Shown here one piece after another: positions 6,781-54,800 of a stretch of 64,000 nucleotides of DNA. The stretch lies in the NCBI GenBank assembly GCA_037379345.1, contig CM074523.1, forward strand, positions 26,256,995 through 26,320,994, written 5' to 3'. The DNA comes from Perna viridis (Eukaryota). Within the stretch, counting starts at the first letter, position 1. Each line of letters opens with the position of its first letter. The notes beneath the pieces are model-generated. The model had not been told where the DNA came from and did not search any database. It saw nothing but the letters and a program-made list of their open reading frames with translations. A program made the position numbers and the translations under genes.

Positions 6781-7179
6781 GAGCTAATACCCATTCTGGG
6801 CCCTGGTTTTAGAGGGGTTGTTGCTTCTGGTTTTTGGTTTGTGTGAATGTACATTTAGGTCAATTGTGTTACACAAGTATCTTCTTAATGATCACTGATG
6901 TGTTTTGTCCAAGGATTTTCCTAATTCAACATTTTGGTACTTATCTATTCTTCATTTAACTTTACCATGCATCACCTAGGTAGATAGATTCTTCGGCAGA
7001 ATGGCCAAAGAAGAGGTAAAATTTGTTTTCAACATATTTTAACAAGCAATGAACAAAGGATGGTAAGTATTGCATGACAAGATGCCTGAGAACATGCAAC
7101 GCCCTTCTTTCTAAGTCCAATAAAACAAGAGTATTCTTTCCAGAAAACACTTTCCACTAAGAAATTAAATCCATAAAAG

Positions 7180-7561
7180 CAGTTTTTAAGTTATGATACA
7201 ACATGTGAGATAGGGTTTACTCAGTGATTTCTGTCAGTTTTTAAATTATGATACAACATGTGAGATAGGGTTTACTCAGTGATTTCTGTCAGTTTTTAAA
7301 TTATGATACAACATGTGAGATAGGGTTTACTCAGTGATTTCTGTCAGTTTTTAAGTTATGATACATGTAAGATAGGGTTTACTCAGTGATTTATGTCAGT
7401 TTTTAAGTTATGATATAACATGTGAGATAGGGTTTACTCAGTAATTTCTGTCAGTTTTTAAGTTATGATACAACATGTGAGATAGGGTTTACTCAGTGAT
7501 TTCTGTCAGTTTTTAAGTTATGATACAACATGTGAGATAGGGTTTACTCAGTGATTTCTGT
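7180..7561. repeat. 55-bp minisatellite, ~7 copies
   Basis: Unit cagtttttaagttatgatacaacatgtgagatagggtttactcagtgatttctgt, near-identical copies. Confidence 0.95.
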
Positions 7562-9659: not shown

Positions 9660-9818
9660 TCAATCATCAGGTGACGATGACTTTCGATACAAAGTTCCAA
9701 ATTTAGACATGTATTTTTTAACATAGTCCTTAGCCTTAGCTTTCACATTCTCATTCACTTCTAAGTCCTCCACGTGTCGACAATGTTTCAACTCCTTGGC
9801 CATCACATGATGAGTGAG
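9660..9818 (-). CDS. SETD2: SETD2 exon 25 (last; SRI domain C-terminal half)
   Basis: ttttgttcacAG|LTHHVMAKELKHCRHVEDLEVNENVKAKAKDYVKKYMSKFG...*; 159 nt. Confidence 0.95.
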   Translation of the reverse strand, partial: LTHHVMAKELKHCRHVEDLEVNENVKAKAKDYVKKYMSKFGTLYRKSSSPDD

Positions 9819-30800: not shown

Positions 30801-33800
30801 ATAATTTTGTGAGTGAAATCATGCTCTCCCATTACAATATTATCATATTTAAGGGCATTCAGTTAACAGCTATTTCAAACCCTTTTAACTGCAATAATCC
30901 TGCTGTATTGTATTGTGCTGTGGTTCGTCCATAATCATAATCATGCAGTAGCATCCCATGTGCTTCTTTGAACAAAAAGTTTAATCTAAGATTATTAACT
31001 GTTTCTACTTCTTTCATATTATAAGTGTGCCCGTTCATAAATGTTTACCACTACTGTTTTGAAAACAGAGATGGTACCAGAGAAAAAACACAGCAACCAA
31101 AAAGTATTCAATCCCCGTATATACTGTAAACATTCATGCTGATTGAAAATGAATTCATCTAATATCTAATTTTGATTTTTGACTAGTTCGTATTATCATA
31201 CTGGAGAGCTTCCAGTTAACTGTTATTTCAAACTATTTTAATTTCAATAATCATGTGTATTGTGCTGTGTTGTGGTTAATCCATTTCCATATTAAACATA
31301 GTAAAAAGTATTGAACTATGATTTCTGATATATACAATATTTCAAAATCATTGAGAAATTCACCCCTTGTCTAGCACCAGGATTGAGAGATGATACCCAT
31401 ACACATGCAAAACAATAGATTATGTCAAATTCATGTTAACTGTGATTCACATGTCTTCAAATGAAAATTTCATTAGGCCACATCAAGTTATTTTGCAGAC
31501 TCTCATCCATCAGCAACTAAAAAATGGGGCAGGTGGGAGGATTTTATTTTTTATTTTTCTACGATTTGTAAAAACATAAAAAAATTGGGGGCAGGCCTTT
31601 TTGAGTAGGGGCGGGTGGGGATGAGAACCTACATATTAACTAGATGTGGCCTTGAATCTGTTTAATGTTGTCTGACTAGCAAATCAAGGATTAGTATCTA
31701 ATTCAAAGTAGTCTTTAATACAAAAAAAAAACAGCACTTTTAAATGCTATAATACTAACTGTATCAAGTTTTCCAAACATGTAACGGTGAAATGTAAAAT
31801 CCGACAATATATAAAATAAACAAAAGATAAAAAAAAAAAAAGAACAGTTTTCCAAATTCACTTAACCACTGTAGCAAAAGCTGATCAAAATGGACCAAGG
31901 ATAAAACCAATTTGTCTTGTTGAGTATCAAGAAGTCAGTCCATATTGAAAACTTTTCACAAATAAGCATTAATTGATGATGGATATCTTTGTAATTCTCA
32001 TCAACCTGTCCTTTGCCTAGTCAAATAAGACATATTGGACAGTATTTTTACATTTATTGACAAATTGACAAACCAGTTCAATATGGCAAACTTACTAGTC
32101 AAATATGATATAATGAGCAGTATGTGTATTTGTACAGACTAACCACTTTGATATGGCTAATTGCCTAGTCAGATATGACATATTGGACTGTATTTGTACC
32201 ATTAATGACTTACCAGTTCCATATGGCTACTCGCCTAGTTAAATAAGACATATTGGGCAGTTTTGTAACTATATTGACTAACCAGTTAATATGGCATATT
32301 GCTTAGTCAAATATGACATATTTGTAACTATATTGACCAACCAGTTAAATATGGCTAATTGCCCAGTCAAAAATGACATACTGGAAGGTATTTGTACCTT
32401 TATTGACTAAGCAGTTCAACATGACATATTTGACAGTATTAGTATCTATATTGACTTGCTAGTTCCATATGGCTAATTGCAAAGTCAAATATGACATATT
32501 TGTAACTATATTGACTTACCAGTTCAATATGGTTAATTGCCTAGTCAAATATGACATATTTGTAACTATATTGACTTACCAGTTCAATATGGCTAATTGC
32601 ATAGTCAAATATGACATATTAGATGATGTTTGTACCTTTGTATTTCAATTGTCCAGTTTCCACTTAGAATTAATGTTTAAGCCTGTTTAGTTAAAATACT
32701 TGTGTATCAACTATCGTTTTTTCCCAACATTCACATGTACAAATCAAATTAAGAAGGACTACATTCATACTGCAATTGTACAAGATAACCTTACATTTAA
32801 ATAATCTCCTTTTCAATTTATATTCATTACTTGAAATGTAAAAAACTGCTATAACAACATGCACCTCTCAAAATTCCTCATTTCATCACATCATATAATT
32901 TTTTTTTTAAATAAAATAAAATGCAAAACCCCTGTAAGAATAGGAAATATTGTTAATTCTAAAATTAAATCCGACAGTTTGTTTTCAGTCAGAATGGTAG
33001 CTGTGATGATCATGTCACTTTGCAGAACATTCCCAAATTGTGAGATTTTATTGAAAAATTCAAGAAAATTTCCTTTTTAACAATACATTTTACTTTCCAC
33101 TGGCAGTGCATTAAAAAAATGTGTACAAATTGCAAAAAAAAGATATGAGAAATACTAGTACCAGTATGTTTTATTAAAGTTCAAAGTAAGCTGCTCTAAA
33201 AATAGTGTTTTTTTCTTACCATGTTTCACCCACAGTTTGATTCTTACTGAGACTGGTATTTAATTTCAAAATATGTTGAAAGTTGGGAAAAAAAGCAGGG
33301 AATATAAGTCAGAGAGTAAAGCAATGAAACCCAGTACCACATAAATGAACTCCTGATAGGTTTATCACTTAAGAGCAAAATGAATTTCAGTCAGGACAAA
33401 TTTGGTGTACATCTGCAGAGGTAAAAAATAGGAAACACAAGCTGGTAGACCAGACCATATTTTTGTTTAACATTTTATATATGTACAACTAAATTTTACC
33501 CAAAAGTTTGGAAGCCCAGCTCAAAATCTAGAAGCCATATGCTACTGGGGGACTGCTAATTTTTATCCCTGCATGATCATTACCTGTATGAACGTTAAGG
33601 TCAGTAAAACCTTATTGTAATGTAATTTCCCTTACTGTTTTCAAAAAGTGGCTATTAATTCCTCATGTTACTTTCAATTTAACAACATTATAGGATGAAT
33701 CAATAAAAAATCTAATTCCTTTCATGTCAGATGCATAAACTTCGAAAGTAGAATACTTGTACAAGTTCTACACTGGTTGTCTCAGTAAAATTTTGGTTTT

Positions 33801-36800
33801 TTTTATACACTGAAGATTTGAATTTTGTTTTTTTTATACATTGAAGATTTGAAATCAATTTTAAAAATCCCTTTGATGAAAAAAAAAATCAAATAGTCTT
33901 CTGTAACACACAAGGAGGAATTATTCTGACAAGTCCTTTCTAAACATAACAATCTTCTGATTTAATATGGACAGTCATTTACCATGTAAACAAGATTTTA
34001 AGTCTCACCTTTTGAGTTTCACAATTTGGATCACAGCTATGGTTGATGAAACGTGACACATTTCCCTTGTAAGATGCATCAATGATTTCGTCAGCATTCA
34101 GTGCCATGAAGTAGAAATGGCTCTCTCCAGTCTTGGCGTACTGCTTGGTCCTTGATTTGAATGTTTTGTAGTCCAAAACTTCTCCAACATATTCCATAAC
34201 AAACGTACCACTGGAAATGCAGGCAATGAACATAATTAATCAAGAAAAAAGAGAAAGGATGAGTAAAAATTCATTTATTGGCAGTATACGCTTATTATTT
34301 TGGTACAAACTGAAATACTGAGCTGTCCTTCTGATGTTGTGGTATCTCAACATACATGTACATTTCCCTGTACGTGTGTATAATGTTGTTTTGGGGCCAG
34401 AGCAGCCTGCCCTGTGGTGTGAGTGTTCCTTGTCATTCATTGAAGAGTATTTTTCATCCTGCAGGGGTTGTTGTCCCTTTGACATATTCACTCTCCTTAT
34501 ATGTGTTTTACAATGGAAGAAGTTTCATCCATTTCAAGACAAGAATATCAGACCAATTTAGTGGAGCCTCCATTAATTTGTACAATATAGTCTGACACTA
34601 TAAGCTTGATCTTTGAAATGCAGGAGGACCAAACCAAAATAGCCTGCATAAAGAAAGCATATCACTCCATTACAAATTTGTACTACTAAGTCAAGCTAGT
34701 GGTCTAGTACATTGTACTCTTTGAGAGAGCACCTGCCCAAATTTAGTTGTATTTATGATCGATAACATCACCAATTTCAGGAGGACCTACATGTATTTCA
34801 CAACTGATTAAGTGTACTCAGACATGTTTGTTAAGATTTTACTTGCCATTTTTGCAGAAATATTTGATAGCTGCATTTGATGGAAATAGCGGCATTGTAT
34901 TTATGATTTGTTGTATCAATTTTCGATTCCACTATTGCAAATACATGTAACCATTTAATAGTTAACTCAATTTGTCACCATCAAATCCTGAACAACACTT
35001 ATAAATTATCAATTATCTCCTGCATCTTTGTTACATTTTGGATATGATTCAACCTTTCACAACACTGGATTTGAGCAGTACAACTTGACTACAGGGATGT
35101 CTCTACTGTTTGAACTTACGGTTGGAGTTCTGCATTGGTCTTCAATCCAAAACCTTTCCAATCTGTCCTGAATGGTTCCACATCTGCATACTGTCTCTAT
35201 CAAAATGTAGGAATTAATTAGTACGAGTAACATTTTCCATATTTTAATATTAAGGAGGTAGACCTAAGGTAAGGGATACAACTCTTACAAATCATTGGAA
35301 TGTTTGTATTCAGCATTTGACATCAATCTGATGTAAGTATTAAAGTTACTTGGACTGATTTGATCCTGTTTCAAATGAAACTTGATATGCTTTGGTGAAA
35401 TTGAATACAATACTAACTTCATACTGATTTCAAGAGTAATGTCCCTTACCCTAAGTCTACCTCCTTAAATAGTAAGAAAAACTCCAATTGCTTTCGAAAA
35501 AAATGTAACTTAATCCCATGGTCACCAGTCCTCACTGTGTGACAAATTGTTCTCCCTAAGAAGGACAGTCCTTATGACATCATGTATTTTATTGTAGTTA
35601 CACCTATTAGAAAAAGTAATTCGAGATGAGAATAATTTCACTTCCTCCTCGTCTTACAGCAAAAGGTGCAAAGAAAATGTTTCTAAACATTTGTAGAAAG
35701 AAAATTAAAACTCAATGTTAACAGTGTTACCCATTGTTTCTTTTACAAATGTGTATTTTTATATGAGTTAACTGCATTTAAGTCATATCCTTCATTATCT
35801 ATGTAACCATCTATCCATGTAAATAAATTTGACAAGTTCTATGTTCTAAAAATTGAAATTCTGTTATAAATATATGTCTATGGTGAAAAAATTCTGTTAA
35901 TTTCATTTGTTTTTTTGTTGTTGTTGTTGTTTGTTTTGTCCTGTGTGTGATTATACAGGAAGTTGTTAGAGTACAACCAAACACTGTAGGAATTTCTGTA
36001 GAAGTTAAGATAATACTTCGTAACTATGATTTTTTACATAACAGTTTCAAATTTTCTCAGACGTCAGCAATTTTTCATGTTTTGATGGACTGCAGGCAGA
36101 ATTAAAATCCTACATACCTTCTGGAATCTCCTGTTGGTACAATATTCTCCACATTGGCATCGGCTTCCACTGAAAACAAGGAAGATACATGTAACTTTTT
36201 TTTTTTCATTTTTAGTACATATATTATGCAGAATTTATTTAGAATGAAATTTATTGTCTATGTTTTCTTAAGTAAGTGTTCATGTAAAAATGAAAAAGCT
36301 GATGTTAAGCCTAATATTGTTCATAACATTTTTCTCAAATGCATTCAAAACACCTTAGAATACTCTTCATATAATTAATAACACAAAAAAATCATTGTAA
36401 TGGAAGATCATTGATTGGTTATACAGGAAATAAAAACTGCTAGAAAATTCCCCTATCAAATCTTCTCATTTGACAACAATACTAATATAATCATTTAAGG
36501 AGGTAGACCTAGGGTAAGGGGCATAACTCTTGAAATCAGTGATATGTTTGTATCATATTCAATTTCACCAAAGCCTTTCAAGATTTCCTTTGAAACAGAA
36601 TGAAATTAGTTCAAGTTACTTTGATGCTTATATGAGATTGATGTAAAATGCTGAATACAAACGTTCCAATGATTTGTAAGAGTTGTGTCCCTTACCCTAG
36701 GTCTACCTCCTTAATATAAGTTAGGCACAGCCTACAACCAAGCATCGCACTTACACATTTTCTTATGTTAGACATTGAACAATAGATGATGGCTGATAGG

Positions 36801-39800
36801 GGCTAGATAGGATAGGTAAATGGTTGTCCACTAAATAAAACAAATGTCAGTGTACCAGATACTGTAAATATATCTTATTTACTTTTTCCTGATTTTTGAA
36901 TAGAATATTTTAATTTTGAATCAAATTAAAGGCTACTTTCACTTTGAATTCACTTCCCTGACCCATTTCTGCGGGCCCGTCAGATACTTATTCTGGTTTG
37001 ATTGAACCGCTATCATTAGCCTTGCATAAATGCTTGGTATTGGCTACCTAATCAGAACTTGACTGCTTAAAAAGCTTGCCTCAGTTCTGAAATATTTGTA
37101 ACAGAACACTCACTGACCAATTTTCAGGCCAACAGAAAGCATTGAACTAATTATTGTACAGTGATTAATTTTCCTCAAATGCCTATTTTGGCCTATTTTA
37201 GCAGTCTATCCAAAAAATGCCAAAATAAATTCCATGAAATATTCACTCTTGGCATAAGTAGCTAATGAACCATCAACATCTACAAAAATTAGAAACACCA
37301 AAATATTTATTATTAAACCAAAAATTAAGTTACCATTGCCTAAAAATTGCCTAATTTTACACCTGCCATTTGGTATCAGTTATTGAGCTCCTACTTACCA
37401 TTCTATATATAACATACGATTGAGACAGTCCTCCCCGCAGGCCTCAACACCAAACCTCTTCTCATCATCAGTAATAGAACAGTCACATAACATCCTCTTC
37501 ATCTTTTTACTCAATTTTCTACAACAATTCATTTCAAGTATATACCTTTTAACTACAGTCTTATCAATTGCATTTTAATGTCAATACTAATTTATTTGCT
37601 TTCACCTGCAGCATTCCGATTCACACTTTATCTATGAAAGACCAATGAATTATGACAAGTGTAAATATGCATTACAAGATACACTTTCATTCCAGATCTG
37701 TAAAACTTAAAAAAAATACCATGCCATAATGTTGACCACGTGTTATATATACCAGAAGCAATCATGGACTTTGTGATTTTCCACATTTAATTAATAGATT
37801 TTAATCTGTGATGGATAATTTGCTGTCAAAATTGTATTTATTACAGAGACTTGCCCTTTTTGTTGGTAAAATGTTAATTTTGTGCAAAATTTAGCAAATT
37901 TCAACCTAAAACCCTCCTTTTGAAGATCTCTGAATTTCCACCTGACAAACTACAAAGTTCCCTTACCTTTCACTAAGATATAAGTTTTCCAGTACAGGTT
38001 CAAATTGAGGAGGTTTGCTAGGGTCTTTCTCTTCCTCAGGCTCCTTGACTTTCTCTGCCTCTTTCGGCTTCTCTATTTTAAGTGGAGACTCAGATTCTTT
38101 GGTTTTGTCTTTCTTGTCCCGTTTCTGTGGTGTTGATACCTCCTTCTTTGTAGTTTTTGGTGGTGTTTTCACCACCTCAGGAGTGATTATGAGATCTGAT
38201 GAAGGGTCCCATGCATCATACACCACAGGCTTAGAGTCTGCTGAAGTCAGCTCTTTAAGGGGTGAACCTTCTGAACCAGAAGATGCTGTCACATCAGTAG
38301 CATTACTATCAGGACTCTGGGTGGCTGGAGCTTCAAAGTCACTTAATCGTCGCCATCGAGATTTAACTTTTTCAGGTCTTGGTGAAGCAGAGGGAGGTGG
38401 AGATTGTAGATCAACATCTTTCTTGTCCTGTTTCATGCCAAGTTTGATTGGGAGCCCTGTCTGGGATGATGGAGGAGGGTGTTTAGGCAGCTCCAATTCT
38501 GGTGTTGGTGTTGTATTTCCTGATTCTGCAGGGTCCTCAAGTAATGGGATCTTTTTAGGTTTTTCCTCAGTATCCGACAGAAGAGAACTACTAACCACAT
38601 TTTCGGGAGGCATAACAAGAGACAACCCCTTCTGCTTAATCTTAAACCCTTTAAGGGCCATCAGTGGCTTAGAGAGAGGCTTCTCTGGCAGTAGTCTTCC
38701 TTCATCAATCCTGAAAGTTTCTGGTTGGATGGCTCCTTGGTAGGGCAATTCTGGTAGTTGTAGATCCTGTGAGGAAGAAGTTACTACAACAGGTGACTCA
38801 GTAGCCCTTGATTGACTTGGTGATTGGCCTGCCTCTTGTGGAGAAGCTGTCACAGGTATCTTCTGCTGTGCAAGTGCCATTACTGGAGGCTGAAGTTTCT
38901 GTACAGGGATTTCAGGCTTGGCAACTGCAGGTTTGAATGTTGGAACATTCTGTTGAGTTGGCATTGGGAATGGCAGCCTTGTTCCCTGCAACCCTCCAAC
39001 TTTAGGTGAAGAATCAGTTGGTTTCACAAGAGGTCTCTCTCCAATCAATGGTGATTGTTGAATAGCACCTTGATTATATTCTGGGGGTATCTGGTATTGT
39101 CCCTGGTGCATGGCTTGGTCCTGAGAATATCGTGCCTGTGGAGTTGGTAATAACCCAGCTGATCCATGCTGTGCTTGACCTTGTTGCTGTGCTCCGTATA
39201 CAGTTTGGTCTACTCCATACATTTGACTCTGTGACCCATAACCTTGGCCATAAAGATTCTGATTTGGTTGTTGGTACTGTGGCATTTGGCCTGCACTGGG
39301 TACTTGCTGTGGTGGCATTCCTCCCATCTGTGATTGGGTTGCTTGTATTCCTTGTGCTTGGGGCATACCTGGTGGTACTCCATGACCTGGAACTGATTGT
39401 TGAGGTATTCCTGGTGCCACTTGTTGGGGTGGCATGCCTGGTACCACTTGCTGGGGTGGCATACCTTGCCCAGTTTGATGTGGTGGCATTCCTGGCCCAG
39501 CTTGATGAGGCATTGCTTGACCAACTTGCTGTGGCAGTAGACCTGGTGTTGGGCCAGCTGGTTGTTGACCATATCCTACATCTGCTGCTGGCATTCCCTG
39601 GTATCCTTGGATTGGATAATAATTTCCATATGCATCTTGATAATATCCTGGTGTAGAGGAAGTCTGCTGGACTCCTGTAGCACTTGTAGAACTGCTAGCA
39701 GATTGGGTCTTTGATTTCTTAGGTTTCTCTGTTGCCATTCTGATCCACTCTTCTGTAAGTTTGTCCACTTCACCTTTAGAAGAGTCCAGAAAGGAGTCTT

Positions 39801-42800
39801 TGTCTTGCCTTGACCTTGAAGATGATCTTGAATTGTCACTATCATCACTGCTGTATCTCCTTCGATCTTTTCTACTTCTCTTACTTTTTCTTCCACGCTC
39901 TCGGCTTCTACTGCGTTCACGACTACGTCTCCTGAAAGACTTTTCTCTACTACGGTCTCGACTTCTACTACGACTTTGGTCTCTACTCCTCCTTCTATCT
40001 GGACTTCTGCTTCGACTTCTACTGTAACTTCTATCTCTGCTATCATGGTAACGATCTTTCTTGAACCTTTTTCTATCATATCTGTTACGACTATCATATC
40101 GATCCCGACCTCTGCTTTCATATCGATCTCTGTCTCTGTTGTCATATCTATCCTCATCTCGTCTCTTCCTGTCTCGTCGTTTGTCCGAGCCTCTGTCTCT
40201 GTAATCATCACGGTCTCTATCTCTGGAATAACGATCATCATAATCTTTGTCCCTCGAGTAACGATCTGATTCCTTCTCTTTATACTTATTAGATTCTCGA
40301 TACTTGCTTTCTTCATATCTATCTTTATAAGATTCTCTTTCCCAACCTTCTTTCTTGCTTCTTGGCTTGTCAAGATCCAATGTTTTCAGCTCTTTGTCTA
40401 CACTGCGGAATTTTTCAATCATTTTGATAGCCTCCTCATTCTTTGTATCAATTCCTTTGAACTGCTCCAAAAGTTTAAGTGCCTCTTCTGTCTGCTTTTT
40501 CTTTACTTTCTCTTCAGCATGTTCTGGCTCTGTTGGTTTGTCTTCAGGTTCATCATTTTCAGACTTTGTCTTTGAGGAACCATAGTTAATCATGGCTTTG
40601 CCCCGTGCAGTAATGATACTTTCTATGACCTGACCTTGACCTTCCTCAGCAGATTCAACCTCAGACGAGCTAACTTGTTCAGTCTTTTTACCTTTGCCTG
40701 AGACAACGGTTTGGATTGCCATACCAATATCTTTTCTCTCCTCAACCTCTGACAATATTTCTCCTTCCTCCACTGTAGGAGAGGGTTTGCTAGGATTAAA
40801 TTCTGCTTTAGGTCGTCCCAAGGGTGAAAATTTACCAAATCCTCCATCAATGGCAGGTTTCAATGGTTCTAATGGATGTTTTGTCTCTGATAATGGAAGC
40901 TGCAGTTGTTTGCTGGTGAGCAGACTTGTTCTTGGTTCAGCTTCAGTGATGTTTTCATCAGGAGCTACTTCTATCATGCCACTTGGCTCTGGCTGATTAA
41001 TTGTATCTTCTGAACTTGATACCATGCTTTCTGATTCAGTGCTTTCTTCATCCTTCCTCTGTAGACTTTTATCCTGATTTTTATAACTATCAACTATTTC
41101 TGCTTCCAAATTCTTAGGTTCATTTTTCAACTCCTGAATGTTAACTGCTGAGGTGATATTAGATTCATCTGCCTCTTCTAATAATTCAGGTTTCTTCTTG
41201 CCAACCAGCTTTTCAGCAAAATCTTCATCATCGTCAGCCCATAATTTCCCAGCTTTTTCCGGTTTTCTCAATCCAAATTTGATTGGTTGCCCTTTCTGGA
41301 TGACCTGTATGGAGGTTTTTGGTTTTAGCACTATACCACTTTGTCTTGGAATATTTTCGCCAAGATCTGACAATGAAGGTTCATGTTTTACAGAAGACGA
41401 ATGCGTAGAATCCGCATCCACTTTACTAACAGTTTCTATTTTCTCAAGTGGTTTTGTTTGGGATTTCTTTTTCACAGATGTATCTTCCACCAGATCAGTT
41501 GGCTCCATGGGGTCATTAAGATTTTGGCTACCTGTAGTTGCTTTCTCCCCAGGAAGCGGTATGTTGAGCAAAGGACCTACAGCCAAACCTGAAGTTAGAC
41601 CTGGTAATGGTATTTCATCTGCAGGAACAAGATGTACTTTCTTTTTTTCTGTCGGTGCAGGAGATTTAACATTACTTAGAGTGGATTGACCTGGTAATGG
41701 TATTTCAACAGTAGAAACAGACAGAGTACTTTTTCTGTCTGCTGAAACAGGAGATTGGATATTACTTGGAGCAGCTTGGCCCAGGAAAAGTACTTCAGCA
41801 GCAGGTCCAGACAGTACTTTATGTTTATCCCCAGCACCTGGATGTATAGCACTTACTGTTTCTTTACTTGGTAATGGTATACCAACAGCAGGGATGGGTT
41901 GACTTTGAATTCTCTCATGTTCACCAGCAAGACCAATGGGTACTTTGACGCCACTGGAATGACCCAAGACAGCTGAAACTGGTTCTATTTTTACCTCGAT
42001 TTCAGGAGGAGGTACCATCTGCGGTGCAGAACCGATACTAAGTGAACTAGATATTTTAGTGACCAATTCTGGTTTATCACTTTCAGCCACAGATGGAACT
42101 TGAACGGGCTCATCATCTGTTGGCATCATGGGATCATACAAATCATCTGCAGTCGGTTCTAGAGGGTCGTAAAGGTCAGCTTCAGGTGGCTCATTCTGAC
42201 TAACTTCTTTAACCTGACTGATTTCCATGTTATCCATTTTTGGTATGGCTACAACTTCTGGTACCGGAACAGGGCTTAGACTTTGTTCTTGGTCTTTAAC
42301 AGCAGTTGGCAGAGGAACGTTTGCATGATCTATAAGTGTCTCCCACCTGGACTTTCTGCCTTTTGACATGGTAACTACCCTGTCTGTAGATTCAACTCCA
42401 GCAACTGGCTGAGGAACAGGAGAATTTTCTTCATGCTTTACCCCAGTATCTACACATATTACACCAGCTCCTTGAAATCCCAACTCTGAAGCAGTGATCA
42501 CTGGAGGTATAGCAGGTAGTTCCTTATCATTAATGCTACGGTTTTCATCATTCTTCACCACTGGCTCATTAGAGACATTAAGTCCTCCAACAGCTGTTAG
42601 GTTTCTACTGCTTTGTTGAATGTTAAGTTCAGCATTTTCAATAGCAGCTGGTTCTTTGTCTGATGTCTCAGCTGCAAGCAAGTTTGATTCTTCAGGTGTG
42701 TCCCATCTACTCTTTCCACTTCTTCTGTCTTTCTTAACCTTTCCTCTATCAGTTTTGAGCATTTCTGCGGGTTCATTGTCAGTGGAACTGACATTAGATT

Positions 42801-45800
42801 TGTCATCAGTGCTGTCTCCTCTTACAGTATTTTCAGCTGATGATTTGAAGTTTGATGTAGGAACTACATCAATCATCTTCTTGGGAGATTGTTTTAACCT
42901 CTGCAAACCATCATCATTGCTTGGCTCTTGTTCCAATTCCATTTCTCCACTTGCAACCTCAACTTCAGGGGTTTCTTCTTTTTTACCTGCGAGTTTCTCA
43001 GCAAAATCAAAATCATCTTCATCATCTGTCCATATTTTACCAGTGTTTCCTGTCTTTGGTAGACCAAATTTGATTGGCTGCCTCCTATCATCAGGCAATT
43101 TTCTTGAGCGAAAGGGAAAGGTTGTTCTAGGCAGCATGGACTGTTGTGCTTGAGTTGTCTTCCCTTGAGATCTGATAGGGTATTCCTTTCTTGAAGGTTC
43201 AGCACTTTGAGATTCCATTGAAGCATCTTTGGTTGAAGAAGTCAATGCTAAATTTCCACCTTTTGTATCAGATGGAACAACCTGCTTTTTATGATCATCT
43301 TGGCTAGCATCTGAAATTGAAGATTCTGGTTGGCTAGACACTACAGAAGGCAATTCCCCAGGTAGAACAATGTCTTCTAATCGAACAGAGCAAGTCATTG
43401 TTGATTTTACAGCCAATTTCTGAGCTTTCTTCTTTGGACTTGTAGGACTGACTGCTTCATTGAAGATCTTTATCTTGATGCCTTCACCTGGAAGAGCTAC
43501 ACTTGACAAGTCAACTGAAAGCGAACCAGGCTTGGAATCACTTTCCTTTTCCACATCTTCTCTGTTGGATTTCTTGTGACGTTTTGATAACTGTCTTTCT
43601 ATTGGTACCTCAGGAGTTTTTTGGTCCACAAAACCTTCAGCAGATCTTGATGACCTGGTTCTCCTTCTTGCTGCCTGTCTTTCTTCTCCTACAGAAGAAT
43701 CTGGAGCATCCTCAGATTTCCTTAATTGTTTAATTCTGGCTGGTTTTGGACTAACCTCTTTAACATCTGAGCCTCTAGACCTGAGGGACCACCTGGATGT
43801 GACATTAGATTGAGATTCTTTGACAAAATCTGTTGATTCCGTCTTTTTGGTCTCTCTTTCATCCTGGTAGTTCTCATCATCCATTTGTTTTACACCCTTA
43901 TGAGTTTCATCACCAGAAATTCTGTCCCTTCCAGTCTTCTTCTCTAGACTTTCTCTATCTGCTCTTTCTTGATTTCCACTTTCAAATCTTTCTTCGTCTT
44001 CATCAGTTTTTCTCTCGTCATATTCAGAAGAACTTCTATGCTTCTTCTTCTTTTTCTTGGATTTTTTGCTTTTCTTCTTTCCATGTTCTTTTGTTGATAA
44101 CTGTGCATTGTCATCACTGGTCTGGTAAGATAAGTGCCCACTAACAAGGTCTGACTGAGAATCCAAAGAAACAGCTGGATTTGTTCTCTTTTCTACATAC
44201 TGTTTAAATTCTGCCACGCCAGCCTTAACCATTCCTTTTTCCTTCCCTTCTAGTTGGTCAATACCATCAGTGTCTTTCTCGGATGTCTGACCTTCACTTG
44301 TCATTGTGTCAGTGTCAGTAATCAGACTTTCAGCTTCACTAACAGATGAGTTGATTGCAGCCTGTTGACCATCCTCTATACCACTGATTATCTTTTTTTC
44401 TTGAGGTAAGTTAGTGTCTATTTTCTCTTCTATTTGCCCACCAGATGTTGATCTTTCAGGAGAGATTGATGTCTCTGGTTTATCATCAGTCTCCTTGGAC
44501 TTTACATGAATCCCATACCTTGTTCGCTTGTACTGTAGTTTTATCGCATCATTAGTAGGATCAGATTTTGCTTCATCTTGTTTAGAATCTCCTCTGATAT
44601 TTGAATCTTGCATGTTATCAGCAGTTGCTGTAGACTTCTTCCCCTCAATTTGACTCATCATATTCTGGAATACTTGATCAGCCAGATTCTGACTTGCGTT
44701 CACATCTTGCATTGATTTAGCTTCTTCGGGCATTGATTTAAATTCTCTTGTCTCTGAATCAGTGCTGTGAATTTTTGGTTTAGTCTTGCCTTCCTCTTCA
44801 TCTGACTCTTCAGATGATTCATAATCAGCTATGATACTAAGTTTAGGACCCCGAGTGGATACGATTAGAGGAGTTTCATCCAACTCAGTCTTAGGTTCTG
44901 GAATATCAATATATTTAGTTGATTTCTGTGTTACTTTTAACCCTTGTCCAACTTGTTCTGTCAATTCAATTTCACTATATTTATTGTCATCAGTTTTGTC
45001 ATTCTTAGTGCTACCTGTTTCTGTGGAGGTTTTTCTTTTGTCCTCTAAAGTTTGAACTGATGATTTTTCAATATCACTACTTGAAGAATCAGAGTGAGCA
45101 TCACTTGCACTAGATTTGCTTTGAACAGGTAATCGTTGAAGCTTTGGTCGTCTCCGAGTTGGTTTGTCTTCACTTTCCCCTTTATCGTAAACATAATCTG
45201 TTTCCTTGTTCTTGTCAAATACTGTCTCTTCATGGATATCATCATCTATAGGAGCATTATCCTCTTGACTACGATTTTCATTGTCATGGTCAGAGCCTGG
45301 GGGATCTGCCAGTTCCTTCTTCTTTGTTGGATCTGAATTATAGAAGTCATCTTTCCTCTTTTCTTTGTCATTTTCAGATTTTTCATCATTATCTTGATCA
45401 ACATCATCTACCTTGTGGTTGCCCTTCTCCATTTCAAAGACCTTAGGGAAGTCTTTCTCCATTGAAGCACTTTTGTGTTTTTTGTCAGTGTAATGATGAA
45501 TTTCATCTAGCTTATGATCAGGAGGTCTCCAGTAGCGTTCAGCCCTGGTATTGTAAGGTTGTTCTTCAGGAGAAGATTGTCTCCTGTATCTTGGAGATTG
45601 AGATCTCCTTCTATCTAACTCCTCCATTTCGGGAGACCTGTATGACCTTCTGTACCTCCCATGCTCTTCACTCTCCTCTGATGGGGATCTTTTAGATTTC
45701 TTGGATTTTTTCTTAGACTCTCTGCTGACTGGTGACCTTGACCTATTTTTCTTCTTTTTTTTTGATTTCTTTTCGTAAACTTCATCCTCTTCACTTCCGC

Positions 45801-48800
45801 TATGATTAGGAGAATAATAAGACTGCCTAATATCTGGAGGACTCTGGGACCTTGGATCTGTCTGCCATTTACCATTCTTCTCAGGCTGACCTGTAACATT
45901 TTTCTTTGGGTTCTTGTTGAGATAGTAGTCCAGCTCATCTACTGGGTCAACGTATGATTTTTCAGATGAAGCCTTTGATCCTTGGTAATAACCTTCATAA
46001 CTTTCATATTCACTGGTTTTTGAGGGATCAAGCTTTTCTTTCTTTTTTGGACTTTCTTCATAATCAACAGGCAAGTCAGGCCATTCCCTCTTCCTATCTA
46101 TTTCCTGGTAATCACCTTTACCCCTTGGTTTAGATTCATACTGAGATCTTTTCCTCTCATGTTCTTCTCCTCCCCTATCTGGGAATGCTTCTGCTCCCCG
46201 TTCTACAAAGTCTCCTGATTGTCTCCTATCTCCATATTCACCAGGTCTCCTTTCCCCATATTCCCGTCGCTTTTCATCAATATCATATTCACTAGGTCTT
46301 CTTTCATCAGGATCAACAGGTCTTCTCTCTCCATAATCTCCCTGTCTCCTTTCTCCATACTCTCCTGACCTTCTCTCCTCAGCTGCTCTCCTGTCTCCAT
46401 ACTCTGGTCTCCTACTTTCATATTCAGCAGGCCTTCTCTCCCTATATTCCCTATCCCTTGTTCTTCTATCATCATAATCTTCAGGTCTCTTCATTTCATA
46501 CTCAACTGGTTTCCTGTCATAACCTTCTGGTCTCCTATCCCCATAGTCCTTTTTCGGGCGGACGACAGGCTCTTCTCCATCATCGTAGTCTCTTCTTCTA
46601 TCTCCTTCTCTGCCTCTTCTAGGATCACTTCTACTTGACTTGTACCTTTCTTCATACTCTGGTTCATCAACCGAACTACGATCCGAGTACTTAGCTCTAG
46701 TTTCCCTTTTTCTTTCTGGTTCAGGTTTGATTTTCGTTCTTTCATCATCAGAGCTATCAGGTCTTTCAAACCTTGAATCAGACCTTCTATCTTCTCTTAC
46801 TCTCAAATCTATCTGTTCCCTTGGCAAATCATCATCGAAGTAACTTTTAGATTCTTTTGAGTACCGTCGATCATCATCACTAACCCTCTTACTAGGAACC
46901 CCTCGATTGTCTCCATCGTAATCTGAATCTATTTGTGGATCTTTTGTCCTTGTCCACTTTTCCTCTGTTCTATATGACTGCCCAATTTCTTCCCTCATTC
47001 CTCTCAATGGTTCATCATAGTCATTTCTACGAGACTTATACTCCTTCTGGTACTTCTCAACAGATTTCATGTATCGATCAGGAATTGGTTGTTTCACTTG
47101 ATCATCGTATCCTCTCTCAGTATATTCCGGGATCATTTGTCTAGCCTCATCGTCTTTCCTCTGTCTTTGATCTCGCTTCCTGTATTCCTCAGACTGGGAG
47201 GATTTATAACTCTGTCTGTCCTCTGATTTATAACTCTGTCTGTCCTCAGACCTCTCCCGGTCATCACTTCTTCCAACTTCTTTGCCCTTAGTTTTTTTTT
47301 TCATTGTTCTCTGCTTCTCCAAACTTTCTTCAATGCTTTTGAGTTCCATTAGCAGCTTTTCTCGTTTTTCTTTCTTGATTCTTTCATCTTCAGGAGTGCC
47401 AGCAGATGACCTCTCACTGTCAGATTCATCTGAGGAGCTTGAATCTGAACTTGAGGATGAGGAACTTGAGGAGTCTCTTCTTGATTTAGATCTTTTCTCC
47501 TCTTGGAGATGTTTCTCTTGTTTACGCTCAAGACTTCTCCTTCTGGGCTCTACTTCTCTGGGAGGTGGTGAAATGGCTTTAGATTTCTCCACTGGTCTTG
47601 ATGGATATTTAGCAGATCTTGGGCTTGGTGACATTTCTCTTGTTTTAGACTTAAAATCGGGACTGGAATCCTGCTCTCTTGGTCTAGAAGTTCTGAAGTC
47701 AGATGATCTCCTTTCTGTGGGGTATTGTTGCCGTCTAAAGTCAGTAGGGTCTGGACTAGGAGAATGGTTCCTCTGTTTGGAAGAAAGGTATTCATCTCTT
47801 TTAGGACTTGGTGTTCTTTGCCTTTGCTTGACTGATCTATGATCGGAGAGACCATAATCTCTTCCTCTACCAGATTTAAAGTCTTCTTGTAAAGGAGGTG
47901 ATAAATCATGCCTGTTTCCTGATCTGAAATCAGACTCTCTTGGTATTTCTTGTTGTCTTTGTTTAAAATAAGTCTCTTCTGGAGTCTTTCTGGGCCGTCT
48001 GTCTTCAGGGCTTCTAGAATATTCCTGACCTCGTCCTCTGTATTCATCTGGGCAAGGTGATCTATCCTTAGCCTTCCTGTTTCTGGGACTTTCTGATCTT
48101 TCCTTTTGCTGACCTCTATAATTTCTTGACCTCGGACTTTGGGACCTATCTCTCTGTCTTGATTTATAGTCTGATCTAGGACTTGGAGACCTTTCTTGTC
48201 TACGATTCCTGGATCCCCTACTATAAGGACTACTGCTACGATCACGCCTTCTATAATCAGCTTCTCTGCGGCTGTCACTATATCTTGGGCTTGGAGAACG
48301 ACGAGCCCTCCTCTGTCGATCATCGTAATCTTTTCTCCTCGGACTTGGTGATCTCCTTGTTTTTTTACTGGAGTACTTCTCATATGACCTTGATCTAGAC
48401 CTTCTATCCCTACGATCACGGGAATCTCTATCTCTACGTTCGGGAGACTTGGATTTCTGCCGCTCCTTTGATGACCTATACTGTCTAGATTTTGAACTTT
48501 CAGATTCAGCACTAGGTGATCTTCTAGATTTACTAGACCTGTCATCATCTCTTCTCCTTTCTGGGGACACTGCAGGCTTCTTCTCCTCGATTTCTTTCAC
48601 ATTTTCTTTTTCTTTCATGTCTTCTTTTATTTCATCAGATTTAGACTTTTTCTTTTCTGGTTCAACATCATCATAAAGACCCTTTAATTTTTCTTCAGAA
48701 GATTCAGCAGACTTAGCAGTAGGTATCGCACCGTTAGCTTCAGGATGAACTGCAGTTACTTCACTCTCATCTGAATTATCCTTTTTCAGACTTTCTACAG

Positions 48801-51800
48801 TTTTCTGATGTTGCTGGTATTTCTGCATGATACTTGACAGTGTCTCTTCCCCATCAATTCCGGGTCTATACATTTCTTTCTTACCATCCTTTTTCTTTTT
48901 CTTGTCAGCATCCTCATCTTTGTCTTTTAGAGGACTTTCAGCTGTAACACTCTTTTTGGTTGCTGGCATTGCAAACTGTACCTTACTGCCAGTTAGAGCG
49001 GCAGGATTAAAGAACCTTCTGGTGGACTTCAGTACAGGGTTAGTAGCTGCACCTGTCACTGAGGCCTGAGCAGCCTTAGCTTGCTTCTGTTTGATTCTCT
49101 CCAGTAATTGTTGAGCTGTAGTTTTTGTAGGATAAGAAGGTTTCTCTGCTTCAGGCTCAGGCTCAGGTTGTGGATTATGTTTTATCTCTGTCTCTGGTTC
49201 AGGCTGTGATACTACCTCAACTTTTGGTTGCTCTACAGGTGGTACTGGTACGAAACCTTTTGGCTTAGGTGGCTCCGGCTCAGTTGCTTGCTCAGCTGCT
49301 CTATTCTGGCGAAACACTTGCATCAATTCTTCTGCTGCTTTTTGAGCAGGAGTTTTGTTCTCATCAAATGGTTGAGAAGGTGCAGACTGAATAGGTGTAA
49401 GTTGGGCAACAACTGGAGGAGCTGGAGCAGATTCCTGAGCTAGTGAATGGGCAGAGTACAGCTGAGTAGGGAAAGCCACAGTTGGTGGTGGTGGTGGTGG
49501 CTGCGAGTCTGAAGGTCCTGTTGAAAATTTTGGATTCATGAACTTTGATGTGGGTGCAGGAGCTGCAGAATACACTGTTGGAGGGGCCGATACTGTAGCT
49601 TGAGATGAGAATGTTGTTGGTCCTGCTGCATAAACAATTTTAGTTTCTTCCTCCTGTCCTTGTACCAATGGTGATGATTCAGTTGTCTCTGCAGTGTCTA
49701 TTTCCATGTCATCTGACTTACTTTCCTCTTCTTTAGGAGGAGGTGGTACAGGAATGTTCTCTGGTTTAGGCTCCTCAGGAGGTGGTGGTGGAGGAGGGAA
49801 CGGCATCACCTGTGGAGGTGGCGGCTGTTCATAGTACTGCTGAGGGGGAGGCAATGGTTGTTGCTGCATGTGCATCATTGCAGGATCCATTGGTGGTGGT
49901 GGCGCATGAGGCTGCATCATGGCTGGGTCCACTGGAGGGGGAGGGGCCTGTGGTGGCATCATTGTTTGGTCCATGGGTGGTGGTGGTGGTGGGTACTGCG
50001 GAGGCGGAGGAGGTGCTCCAGCCATTGGAGGTTGTCCCCACTGTTGCTGCTGGTCTCCCATCATCGGTGGTGGTGGGGGATAATATTGTTGATCAGCAGG
50101 TGGCATCATCTCTCCTCCTGGAGGCGGCATGGCCTGCATAGGTGGAGGAGGCATAGGACCAGGATAACCTGGAGGTGGCTGGTATGGTCCTTGCTGAAAT
50201 GGTGGAGGGCCCATATGTGATGGTGGTGGTCCTGGAGGGCCATAGTCTGGAGGTGGAGGTCCAGGAGGGTACTGCTGTTCAGGGGGGCCAGGTGGGGGCC
50301 CAGGGGGAGGGGTTGGCAACAGTCCTCCTCTTGGTCTTGGTGGTGGTGGTCCATGAGATCCTGGTCCAAACCCTGGTGAATCTGGTCGTGGTGGACCACG
50401 GTCTCTATGGTAATGATATCTATCATAGTGCCTTCTGTCATCTTCAAATGGTGGAGGTGGACCATGTCTGTCATACCTGTCATGGTAATCCCTGTAAAAG
50501 AAAGTTTATAAATCACTATTTTTGTAATTGTTTTGTATTTTGTCCAAGGAGAGTTGTATCCAGTCAAGGACAGCCACATTGAGTGGGAGCCTAATATACT
50601 CATTTAAAGGCCAAACATGTCCTGTCAAGGAATAAACGTGTCAACTTGTGCATTCAACAATATTTCAATCATGTTTAATGTGAGTGATTAAAAGTAATAG
50701 GTTTTAATATAGGTAAATACCTGAAAACATTGTACAAATCTACATGTACACTGTATTGAAAACCCCAACTGGACAAGATACATATGTTGAGTACAATTAT
50801 GATATATTGAATAAAATACATGTGTATAAAGTTATCTTAAGATTGCTTCTAATTCACTGATCAAGTGTCTTAAGAATATATATGTATAAACATTCAGATT
50901 TTTTATGCAATTGGTGATGAAATTAGAAAATGATTCCAATTATTGCAAATGTATAGTATACAATGTACCTTTCCACTCTAGTAGTATTTGTGTAGTACTC
51001 AAGTTTACCATTTACAAGGAGCCATATAACATTTTCTCTTTCATATTATCATATAACTAACATATATAGTCATAAAAACTAACAAACAAATTATTTCAAT
51101 CAGATTACTGAATCAAAAGAACCAATGGTTGCCAATAAAAAAGGTGGAGTGAGGTGTTCTAGGATTTTTCAGAAATTGGTTTTCTCGGGAAAAATCCATA
51201 TAAAATCAACTTTCCCACAGTCAATGACTGCTTTCCTAACAAAACAAATCCTTACAGCATATGAAGTTTTCAACTTGCCACGGGAAAGAGTAACTAAGTA
51301 CCTAACTTTCCCTGACCCATATTTCACTTGCCCCGGGTAACCGGAAATAAGAATCCTAGAACACTGGAGTGGTCATAAGCATTTGTGTCCAAAGTGCCTA
51401 TGGTTCATAAAAGACAACCATATTCAATATAAAAGTAGTATATAACCATGATACTGACCCTGGTGGTCCATATCTTCCCCTGTCATAATCATCATATGGA
51501 GGTCTGTCATATGGGGGTCTGTCATAGGGTGGGCCGTCATAAGGAGGTCCATCTCTCCTTGGTCGGTACCGCCAGTCATCTTCAAAGGGAGGAGGGGATC
51601 CCCTGAATCTTCTGCGGTCATATCGATCATCATCATAGGGTGGTCGGTCATCAAATCTGGGACCTCGACCTGAAATATTACAATGATAAATTTGACAATA
51701 CATGCCTAAAAAATCTGAAGATTTTAAATGCAGCAGTCAAATTAAGGCAATAAATGATTAGTTCCAGAATCTCATGCCTCCAATGCCAATGCTATTAAAG

Positions 51801-54800
51801 ATACATCAAAATTAATTAATTAAAAAAAAAAAACATCAATATATATCGATTCCTTTTGCAACCGCCTTGTTTAAAAAATGGAAATCTGAAAATGAAATAT
51901 TTCAAAGAAATACTGTTAGGGAACATTATTTAAGTAGCTGGAGATTCAAGATCTTATCATCTTAATTGCCTCAACAGTCAACATAATTGCCAACCCCCTC
52001 TCCATTTTTATTCTGTACATAGTATTTGGAATTCAGTGACAATGTGCTTTTTACTGCACAAAGAGAGAACATAAATTAATTTCAATTTGAGTTTATAGGG
52101 TTTTAACTAGCATGCTTAGGGTTGATAGTCAATTCTTGTCTCGATCATCACTTCAATCCATTGATGGCACACGTGCTCAATTATCTTTCGATGATAAGCG
52201 TCGTCAGTTTGGATCAAATCGGTTAACACGGTTCAAAAAGATGTAATGTAGATGACTGAAGCTGCTGAAGACAGTTGAATATATGCTGTTAGTGCAACAT
52301 TGTAACAACGATTTGAGTAAATTTTATCAAATACTTTGGTGTATGATCGCAGGGTTTTTCAGTCAAGAGGGCTGGCAATATGTTCACAAAACATCCAAAA
52401 ATATAATGAACATGGGCGCCAAATTTACCTCGTGTACAGCTTGGGCAAATTCAACCTATGATCTTTCCGTGTCCCTCTTGTAGGCCATATACATTTATCT
52501 GGATAAAGCCCTCATAACATAAGCACTATAATATTAGTATTCAATTTGTGAAGAGTGAAAATTCTTGCTGCTTTTTTGGAGTTGTGTACATATTTTTCCA
52601 ATCACACATGTAACTTTTCTGATTTTCTTTCCTGTTTAGAATTCAAGAGCAATGACATGTTGGATAATGTTTCACGGAATTCAAACATTGAGTTTGTACA
52701 GGTACATGTAGTGTAATGCACTATATTATTTTGGACATTGTCGATGTACAATGATGAAAATTCTCTGACAGTTTTAATGTTCCTCTAATATTTCAAATTT
52801 TATCTATTTTAATTGCGACATTACCAATTACCAATTAAGAAGGCAAAAAGTGCAAGATACACCCAACCCCCCTTTTTGGTGCTTCAAACCCAAAACTCTG
52901 AAACAAATAACAAAAACATGAAACAGATCAATAGGAAACTATATTCCTTGAAGACAAACATTCCACCAAGAAATTAATGAAACCCCTCAGTGACTTTGTT
53001 ACACAGAAGGACGTGTATGTAGACAGACAGACATGCGGTACATGTATGTCCATCAGAACAAAAAAAAAGTAGGCACATAGAGGGATATCATCTTAATGTA
53101 TTACCAGACATGATTAACATGTATATGGAACAATAGCAATGTACAAGTACTTATTGCTTAAGTGTAAGTATTCATAAGAATCAGGCAAAATAGGAAAAAA
53201 TCAGATACATGTCAAAAACCCACAGATCTGACAATATAATTTCACTCAAGGATTCTTTCTCTATTTGAAAAGATTATTATTTGATCTTTGCACCAATGCA
53301 TTTGCTCAAAAATTTTTCAATAGAATGTTTGAAAAAATAGAATTTTGACAGAGTCATCTGCCCTTGAAATGTTCACTTTTTGTGCATTTTAATGAAATTT
53401 TAATTCAATCTACCAAAATGATATGGAAAATCTTGTCTTTTTTCCCTGATTCTTATGGTGCAATCAAGTCAAATTAAACGTTCAAAATGGTGGGTTTTTT
53501 CATACCATGTTTCACCCACTGCCTGATTGTTATACAGACCGACACTAAATATCAAAGTACTGGTAATTATTGAGTAAATGCAAGAATGCTAACTTTAAAA
53601 TCCAGATTTGACATAGCGAATGAAAATCAACAGGTCTTTATTTGTTATGCTGGAAGGAAATGACATCAGCCGATATTAAGTTGAAGTAGACACTGATATG
53701 TATTGAACAGGTTAGACAAATTTCATTGAATTTCAAGACGTGCTGAAACATATAACACATTTATTTTAAAGTGTGGTTATTTTTTTCCTGTACAATCTTA
53801 AAAACTAATTTCTCACTGTGAATTTTATTTTAATCATTCAACTTCAGTTACTGCTCATATTATTGATACTTTTTGACATTCATTGGTTTCTTTCGTCAGG
53901 ATCTTTGAATTTGTACAAAGACATGTCTGAGTAAGTGAGTGGAAAGAGAAGATACATATGTTACATGTAGATGAACATACATATAGATAGATAAGAACCA
54001 AATTGTAAAAAAGCCATAAATACTGTAAAGGCAGGAATTATCACATGCAATAATTATTGCAGCAATGACATTTTTGAACAAGAATGCAGATCAAATTTTA
54101 GTAAAATTAAGAAAAATCCTGCTATGCTCAATAATGCTAATTCTAATAACATGTTCTGCATAATCAATTCTGTCACAACTTTGCAATAATCCAAACATTG
54201 CAATAATTTCATTATTTACAGAACTGCGATACTAATTCTAATGTACCTGTGTACATAATATGTACATATAAACTGTGTAATACGTGTAACACAAGTGAAC
54301 ACCATTAATGTTTTGAGACAAGTTTGAAGGCAATTTTTTTTTTTTGAAGACATGAATCACAGTTTTTAATGCCTACCTTAATACAAATATATATTAATTA
54401 TGTTGTACATATGATGTATTCCTAAATATAACTGGCTACTATCATTTTATAAAATATTTTTACACAGCATCTACTAGAGTATTGTTTGCTCATTCAACTT
54501 CAATTTTCTCTGTACTTTCCGTAATTTATCTAATCTTCTCTGCAGACCTATAACCGCTTCCTGATTTACTGCACACATGTACAGGTATAAAAGCTCCGAT
54601 TTAAATGCATAGGACGTGAAAAAAAAATTCACAAGGAATACACATCTATTCTACTGTAGTAATTTGCATAAAGTGGCGTGGTTAAGTACTGTGTGTGTGG
54701 CAGAGGAGTAAAGCTAGAAATAACAAATACATGTAAATTCTGTGCGCAGTAGATATAGTCAGTTTGATACATATACTCTGTATTTCAGATTTTTTTCTCT

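Follow-up and report, generated by a model that had tools for sequence, protein, structure and literature searches.

SETD2 of the mussel Perna viridis: a 12.5-kb exon spliced to the catalytic exons and the short conserved motifs within its long N-terminal arm

A 64,000-nt stretch of the Perna viridis genome (assembly GCA_037379345.1, contig CM074523.1, positions 26,256,995 to 26,320,994 of the forward strand; referred to as the window, and numbered from its first letter) carries on its minus strand a stop-free frame of 4,180 amino acids (aa), from 50,505 to 37,963. Base shuffling of the same region, repeated 200 times, gave no frame longer than 184 aa. The locus raises two questions: whether this frame is one exon of the histone methyltransferase gene SETD2, as had been predicted from the letters alone, and what so long an N-terminal arm might do for the enzyme. 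We consider it probable that the gene is a mussel SETD2 whose 12.5-kb exon is spliced whole to the catalytic exons, and that the exon encodes a likely disordered arm that drifts in length and carries conserved, likely docking, motifs.

The giant exon and its splicing

The giant exon (37967..50491; like all SETD2 features described here, on the minus strand) lies between an AG acceptor (50,491) and a GT donor (37,967). It thus spans 12,525 nt, or 4,175 codons, and is in phase 2 at both ends, in agreement with the approximate number of open codons predicted. Open frame, splice sites, RNA joints with coverage, and the gene model all define it as coding exon 5, with 78% of the coding sequence. Its G+C content is 38-50%, versus about 32% in the flanks. 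When read variants were examined, 16 of the 24 best supported were synonymous, as against 21.6% of all possible changes. Hence, the frame of the exon is under purifying selection.

A translated search using P0004, a protein of Mytilus, located the remaining exons, which were trimmed to AG/GT boundaries. The resulting SETD2 model has 25 coding exons (16,137 nt) and, free of internal stops, gives 5,378 aa, close to the 5,400 aa or so that had been anticipated. Exon 1 (62770..62801) provides the start codon, and loose contig ends beyond 57,753 match it. This first coding exon is only 32 nt long, lies 5 kb upstream of exon 2, and has the N-terminal YDPxxPT motif to itself. Exons 2-4 (57753-57494, 56661-56410 and 51669-51459, together 51459..57753) are supported by joints of 30, 25 and 13 reads in the RNA run X21, by three contig runs and by similarity to P0004. 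Exons 6-11 (25577..37518) encode AWS, SET and post-SET; exons 5-9 are linked by RNA joints, and exons 10-11 were placed by homology, AG/GT ends and open frame. Exons 12-25 (9660..25124), assigned by homology, Pfam and the motif map, encode a TFIIS-like helical region, a SHI-type LLPTP motif (exon 18), WW (exons 21-22), SRI (exons 23-25) and the stop codon.

Pfam AWS, SET, WW and SRI scored above their cut-offs on exons of the window (WW and SRI on exons 21, 24 and 25), and the catalytic motifs are intact. The SHI-type leucine pair, KVLLPTP, stands at model aa 4996, between SET and WW, and is common to vertebrate orthologues. On human SETD2 structures the Mytilus orthologue scored about 302 bits over its catalytic stretch; no ASH1L, NSD or fungal entry gave more than 190. 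By its AWS-SET-postSET, WW and SRI domains and its SHI-type motif the gene is a SETD2/Set2 orthologue, with predicted activity in trimethylation of histone H3 lysine 36 (H3K36me3).

The stretch was found in at least 20 runs from 7 studies, none of those listed being catalogued as RNA in the index. Seven of 24 runs were mapped: the raw stranded RNA run X21, of which 19% was read, and six contig runs, whose RNA nature was inferred from the absence of introns. X21 covered every bin of the giant exon at a depth of 13.7-65, almost entirely on one strand. The downstream joint of the exon was crossed by 24 reads (18 starts) and the upstream joint by 13 (10 starts), neighbouring joints having 19-34. 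No intron appeared within the exon in the complete X21 joint list for that region, and no exon-skipping joint was present among the joints listed. In five of the six contig runs (X1, X6, X7, X11 and X17) the whole exon lay in one intron-less contig of 13.0-14.0 kb, while X5 held it in three pieces; the X1 and X17 contigs are identical in size and sequence and may be one source. The X7 and X11 contigs join exons 2-5, the X6 contig joins exons 4 to 8, and RNA joint evidence extends down to exon 9.

An artefactual unspliced open frame is ruled out by the RNA joints at both exon ends, and a separate transcript by the contigs that reach from exon 2 through the giant exon into the AWS/SET exons. The prediction of a single exon RNA-joined to the SETD2 catalytic exons was therefore borne out, with neither internal splicing nor a transcript of its own.

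Three minor observations concern the same transcripts. A joint within the exon that goes back 186 nt (38282-38467; 8 reads, 2 starts, with no stated splice-type ends) is probably a library artefact. Single-T insertions were read as slippage; they occur at three T runs, in 3-4 reads, and at 47,291 in the X6 contig. A minor exon or intron piece at 52429-53204 (minus strand) is spliced to exon 4 in 3 reads and in contigs of X1 and X17; if it is a first exon, its use would remove the N-terminal YDPxxPT motif.

The composition of the exon is uneven. Exon aa 1-200 are 41% Pro and 9% Gln, within a poly-Pro/Gln block (49726..50491) that includes an extra LLPTP copy at 50308-50325. RS/SR-rich stretches occupy exon aa 601-1000 and 3401-3600 (a first RS/SP-rich block at 47476..48543 and a second RS/RD block at 39796..40323, both with approximate limits). 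Between them lies a mixed-charge stretch (exon aa 1201-1400: 23% Arg, 30% Asp/Glu), part of Arg/Glu/Tyr repeats at approximately 46066..46908. Exon aa 3601-3800 are 23% Gln, 16% Gly, 14% Pro and 7% Tyr, in a low-complexity block (39076..39693) with the second extra LLPTP copy at 39139-39156. All the low-complexity blocks named in the original prediction were thus present by composition, and the composition of the last one would fit a putative 'prion-like' domain. No Pfam family was found in the giant exon. A masked protein self-comparison (E 1e-3) found no repeats and a DNA self-comparison two short duplications; the exon has little tandem repetition. Judged by its composition, the arm is likely disordered.

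Arm length and conserved islands among relatives

When the giant exon was used as query against 6,973 candidate proteins of 2,299-7,315 aa, nine matches were obtained. Seven have SETD2 domains and one is the protein of the window itself. The ninth, a frame of 3,961 aa from a contig of 62.6 kb, shares the SETD2 motif at the end of the giant exon and stops just past its ENLYLTER, as expected of a similar giant exon. The matches included RefSeq models of Mytilus californianus (LOC127718205, 5,305 aa) and M. galloprovincialis (LOC143059261, 5,457 aa), oyster-type proteins of 4,233-4,308 aa and one of Pinctada (3,535 aa). The two Mytilus models are orthologues alike in size and layout to the window protein, but the middle of the arm is only about 20% identical and a PIKFxL...KxW module is duplicated in the window species.

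With the catalytic module as query (candidates of 1,944-6,187 aa), further long SETD2 proteins were seen among the best 120 of 445 matches: Dreissena (4,800 aa), Solemya (4,051), Liolophura (4,168), Octopus (3,541), Argonauta (3,502), Physella (4,316), Bulinus (4,299), Batillaria (3,369), Owenia (4,126) and Lineus (4,357). The arm preceding the catalytic module measured 2,231-4,486 aa in 19 lophotrochozoans (median 3,147), 932-2,753 aa in 109 deuterostomes (median 1,467) and up to 1,250 aa in 55 arthropod-type matches (median 685; candidates of 1,175-3,740 aa), in sets that are biased by their length windows, contain many partial models, and have no scallops, limpets, brachiopods or flatworms among them. 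No SETD2 longer than 3,500 aa was found in the best 150 of the 50%-identity representatives. Enlargement of SETD2 extends across the lophotrochozoans and was already to be seen in public gene models, and size alone is ordinary for the clade. The simplest reading is that the arm grew in the lophotrochozoan line and then again in mytilids.

The window arm is 4,427 aa, compared with 1,451-1,496 aa in squirrel and crocodile, and the giant exon ends in ENLYLSER, which was aligned to ENVYLTER of human SETD2 via the Mytilus orthologue. It had been proposed that one ancestral exon, represented in human SETD2 by the large exon 3, roughly tripled. The threefold difference in arm length from vertebrates is confirmed, and shared ancestry with human exon 3 is backed at the 3' end only.

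Conservation along the protein was followed in bins of 250 aa. Identity to Mytilus was 19-74% in the arm, the lowest values (about 20%) lying at model aa 2,750-3,500; behind the arm it was 74-93% in most bins and 65% in one. The two Mytilus species are 89% identical overall, and the comparison suggests a mussel of a genus other than Mytilus. Outside mytilids, 1-4% of 12-aa windows exceeded locally shuffled controls. A preset-free scan placed two islands at the top, namely the last residues of the exon and PxKVKSRWRRxS, 127 aa earlier, each found in 11 of 17 non-mytilid proteins. The islands, basic-SRW and IPLP included, follow the same order across pteriomorphs. Conservation of motifs across molluscs, the lack of which would have counted against the original prediction, was found. 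A look-alike search with the last island region returned a single match, with a score of 0.79, and was uninformative.

Several further islands could be placed. A short one, KTTAQQLLERIK (49090..49125), is conserved in pteriomorph bivalves, with a variant in Dreissena. The DNA self-comparison and motif map located two copies of the PIKFxL...KxW-acidic module (43003-43080 and 41218-41289), 78% identical in DNA over 76 nt; the interval 41218..43080 that they enclose also holds two basic-SRW motifs (42700-42726 and 42340-42363), IPLP repeats and, at 42118-42174, two YDPxxPT motifs in tandem. LTEEW (39745-39762) and YQDAYGNYYP (39613-39645) come after the second RS/RD block. The pteriomorph islands LPIKLG (38428-38454) and YDAWDP (38203-38220) flank the KVKSRW motif.

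This last motif, PxKVKSRWRRxS (38335..38379), upstream of AWS, is near-invariant in protostomes. The pattern KxK[ST]RW occurred in 17 of 19 lophotrochozoans (of the other two, Lineus shows a variant and Batillaria lacks it) and 51 of 55 arthropod-type matches, as against none of 109 deuterostomes; local shuffling of seven proteins, 200 times each, never produced it. In an alignment of 46 protostome proteins, its Trp and the Ser downstream are conserved to at least 90%. The mite Brevipalpus retains a motif of this type despite an arm of about 70 aa. We regard it as very probable that KVKSRWRRxSE is functional; most likely it would dock a protein or the nucleosome and be required close to the catalytic domain of many protostome enzymes. 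The string KVKSRW was not found in a text search of the papers available to us.

Candidate docking motifs and competing explanations

The element EEGEI (40747..40773) fits the published ARS2-binding pattern [ED][ED]GE[ILV] (PMC9402713; see also PMC10767929). SETD2 is mentioned nowhere in the main text of PMC9402713. The pattern occurred once in each of the nine bivalve arms, in 3 of 55 arthropod-type arms and in 1 of 109 deuterostome arms (sea urchin); local shuffles gave it in 2.5-9.5% of cases. In eight of the nine bivalve proteins, Solemya included, it stands 838-981 aa before AWS. Like the ARS2-binding proteins of the EDGEI class (Red1, ZFC3H1, FLASH, ZC3H4, ZC3H18, NCBP3 and PRPF4B), the window arm has one match to the pattern and is acidic and likely disordered. 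It differs from them in that the motif is limited to bivalves among lophotrochozoans and that ARS2 binding is here predicted from the pattern. ARS2 is the best-defined docking candidate; that EEGEI binds ARS2 on the cap-binding complex is a tentative proposal, to which we give slightly less than an even chance.

Two other motif types were followed. The pattern Y[DSN]PxxP[TS] opens SETD2 in mussels, Solemya, Physella, Lineus, crinoid, amphioxus, shark, frog and crocodile, and it recurs 2-4 times within pteriomorph arms, with none in the partial Pinctada model. The register of YDPxxPT suggests a fit to the heptad of the RNA polymerase II (Pol II) C-terminal domain (CTD), with an acidic residue at the Ser2 position. 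A basic run followed by Arg-Trp and an acidic residue or Ser, which is the UHM-ligand consensus, occurs 1-3 times per arm in 17 lophotrochozoans, compared with 0.15-1.05 times in shuffled arms, at varying positions. The basic-SRW motifs may possibly bind UHM-type splicing factors, an assignment that we hold to be doubtful, and it is somewhat less likely still that CID-type readers would bind YDPxxPT as an acidic stand-in for the CTD heptad.

How these elements might act together can be outlined. As in human and yeast, SRI would hold SETD2 on phosphorylated Pol II, and H3K36me3 would be written during elongation. By analogy with human work, the SHI motif would contact hnRNP L, and the long arm would keep SETD2 short-lived. 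The arm might then act as a length-tolerant, disordered tether whose islands would dock RNA-processing or elongation factors and so add contacts with the nascent transcript. In its fullest form the proposal would hold that the lophotrochozoan arm was built round KVKSRWRRxSE, a regulatory element of protostome SETD2 that deuterostomes lack, that bivalve SETD2 is tied to the cap complex via ARS2 and also to 3' splice-site and CTD-reader proteins, and that H3K36me3 is steered by the cap and splicing machinery in addition to Pol II; taken as a whole, this is improbable.

A number of points count against a docking arm. The support is at the level of gene, RNA and sequence, and the docking partners are putative. 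The contigs were assembled from short reads and so display no single full-length molecules. All motif patterns other than EEGEI were defined after inspection of the sequences, and the relatives are not independent samples. The EEGEI pattern is found in none of the 10 non-bivalve lophotrochozoan arms and takes another position in Dreissena. A KVKSRW-type motif is present in 36 of 105 representatives with at least 60 aa upstream, and is thus not universal. Only mytilids have the additional LLPTP copies of the giant exon, and flanking residues affect hnRNP L binding (10.1101/2021.05.22.445248). Human SETD2 deprived of its N-terminal arm still makes H3K36me3 (PMC7542105), and phase separation is reportedly not driven by that arm (PMC9167812).

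The arm could instead be a passive, near-neutral expansion serving only as a degradation signal and carrier of nuclear-import signals, with the islands being import signals or leftovers. More than 95% of windows are not conserved outside mytilids, arm length among orthologues varies from below 100 to 4,486 aa, KVKSRWRR is basic, and the human arm is dispensable for catalysis and contains import signals. The human N-terminal arm is disordered, is without known domains or motifs, and drives proteasomal turnover (PMC8405934, PMC7542105). However, the conservation of Trp and Ser in the 46 protostome proteins goes beyond what an import signal needs, and EEGEI is held at one position from Solemya to mytilids. 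We consider a purely passive arm rather unlikely.

It had also been proposed that the arm is an SR-related or SCAF-type speckle scaffold, in effect a second protein joined to the methyltransferase, which would couple H3K36me3 to splicing and cap-associated factors in a way that vertebrate SETD2 does not. The two RS blocks (113 RS/SR dipeptides vs 77 in shuffled sequence), the excess of EEGEI, basic-SRW and YxPxxPT over shuffle levels, and the ordered islands of pteriomorphs speak for this reading. But neither an RRM nor any other Pfam family was found in the exon, and none of the 6,973 candidates yielded a non-SETD2 homologue, shorter proteins not being candidates. The RS blocks are no denser than in vertebrate SETD2: the peak is 27 RS/SR per 100 aa, versus 16-40 in five vertebrate SETD2 arms. 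Growth was moreover at least partly through local duplication. The SETD2-splicing link known so far is the binding of hnRNP L by the SHI leucine pair (10.1101/2021.05.22.445248), and the SHI-matching motif here is in exon 18, outside the giant exon. The proposal was thus overstated, and we judge it unlikely. Membership of the SR proteins proper was rejected, there being no RRM; the full-length oyster protein shows only AWS, SET, WW and SRI. SCAF1, SCAF11 and PHRF1 also combine a long RS-rich disordered region with a C-terminal CTD-binding domain, but no homology to them was found among the candidates searched, the domain that binds the CTD is here the SRI of SETD2 itself, and RRM, RING and PHD are lacking.

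Finally, that the whole exon is a minor form, most transcripts being cut inside it by splicing, start or end so that the 5,378-aa protein is rare, is very improbable: X21 depth does fall to about 16 at 41.5-42.8 kb and to 14 at the 5' end, small pile-ups of read starts (5 molecules at 44,360) and of read ends (8 at 42,912) and the one backward joint exist, and the coverage is that of 19% of a single raw run, but the complete joint list has no intron-type joint inside the exon, exon depth equals the level of the flanking joints, five of six contig runs are continuous, and the joints listed include no skipping.

Comparison with known systems and other features of the window

The reading that we prefer, a length-drifting arm with conserved likely docking motifs on an otherwise conventional enzyme, can be set against human SETD2 (KMT3A). 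The human protein likewise has AWS-SET-postSET, a TFIIS-like helical region, a SHI-type LLPTP, WW and SRI in the same order, and a long low-complexity N-terminal arm up to ENxYLxER; RS blocks, poly-Pro and an N-terminal YDPxxPT are also present in vertebrate SETD2 arms. The window protein differs in an arm about three times as long, in KVKSRWRRxSE, EEGEI and internal YDPxxPT copies, and in an RVxF-like motif behind SET that is seen in molluscs. This motif (KKRVxF; 22731-22748, minus strand, exon 14) was found in 15 of 19 lophotrochozoan SETD2 proteins and in none of the 55 arthropod-type or 109 deuterostome ones. RVxF is the PP1-docking consensus, and the motif may recruit a phosphatase to SETD2 in molluscs.

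Human internal exons above 10 kb belong nearly all to mucins (MUC4, MUC5B, MUC12, MUC16 and MUC17), plus TTN (PMC3467050). The giant exon is of the same size class, but here a 12.5-kb internal exon with little tandem repetition is spliced in whole in a bivalve gene for a nuclear enzyme.

Our literature search, whose scope excluded most subscription journals and all supplements, found no description of the long SETD2 form or its motifs; PMC12153100 records a SETD2 orthologue in annelids and nothing further. The enzyme itself is known, and what is new here is the layer of motifs (KVKSRWRRxSE, the bivalve EEGEI and the internal YDPxxPT copies). The longest natural arms single out a few strongly constrained residues, which makes testable the question of the SETD2 arm's missing motifs (PMC8405934). 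Three candidates stand out: a motif spread across protostomes, one of ARS2 type in bivalves, and YDPxxPT, which vertebrate SETD2 also has. If SETD2 does contact ARS2 directly, this would connect the cap complex with chromatin in a new way.

SETD2 orthologues of 4,000-5,500 aa are often misnamed in databases. Three full orthologues (P0008, P0003 and P0004) were annotated as 'microtubule-associated protein futsch-like' or 'uncharacterized protein', because of their long arms.

Other features of the window are repetitive. Intron 23 contains a 36-bp tandem array (10911-11698; 21.9 copies, 96% matches), the source of three spurious long frames, and a 55-bp array of 7 copies lies at 7180-7561. Downstream of SETD2, broken frames on the minus strand (4955-6854) resemble a reverse-transcriptase remnant. 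High-copy dispersed repeats occur within introns at 35277-35454, 36495-36714, 51154-51350 and 53150-53530, where contig depth runs into the thousands.

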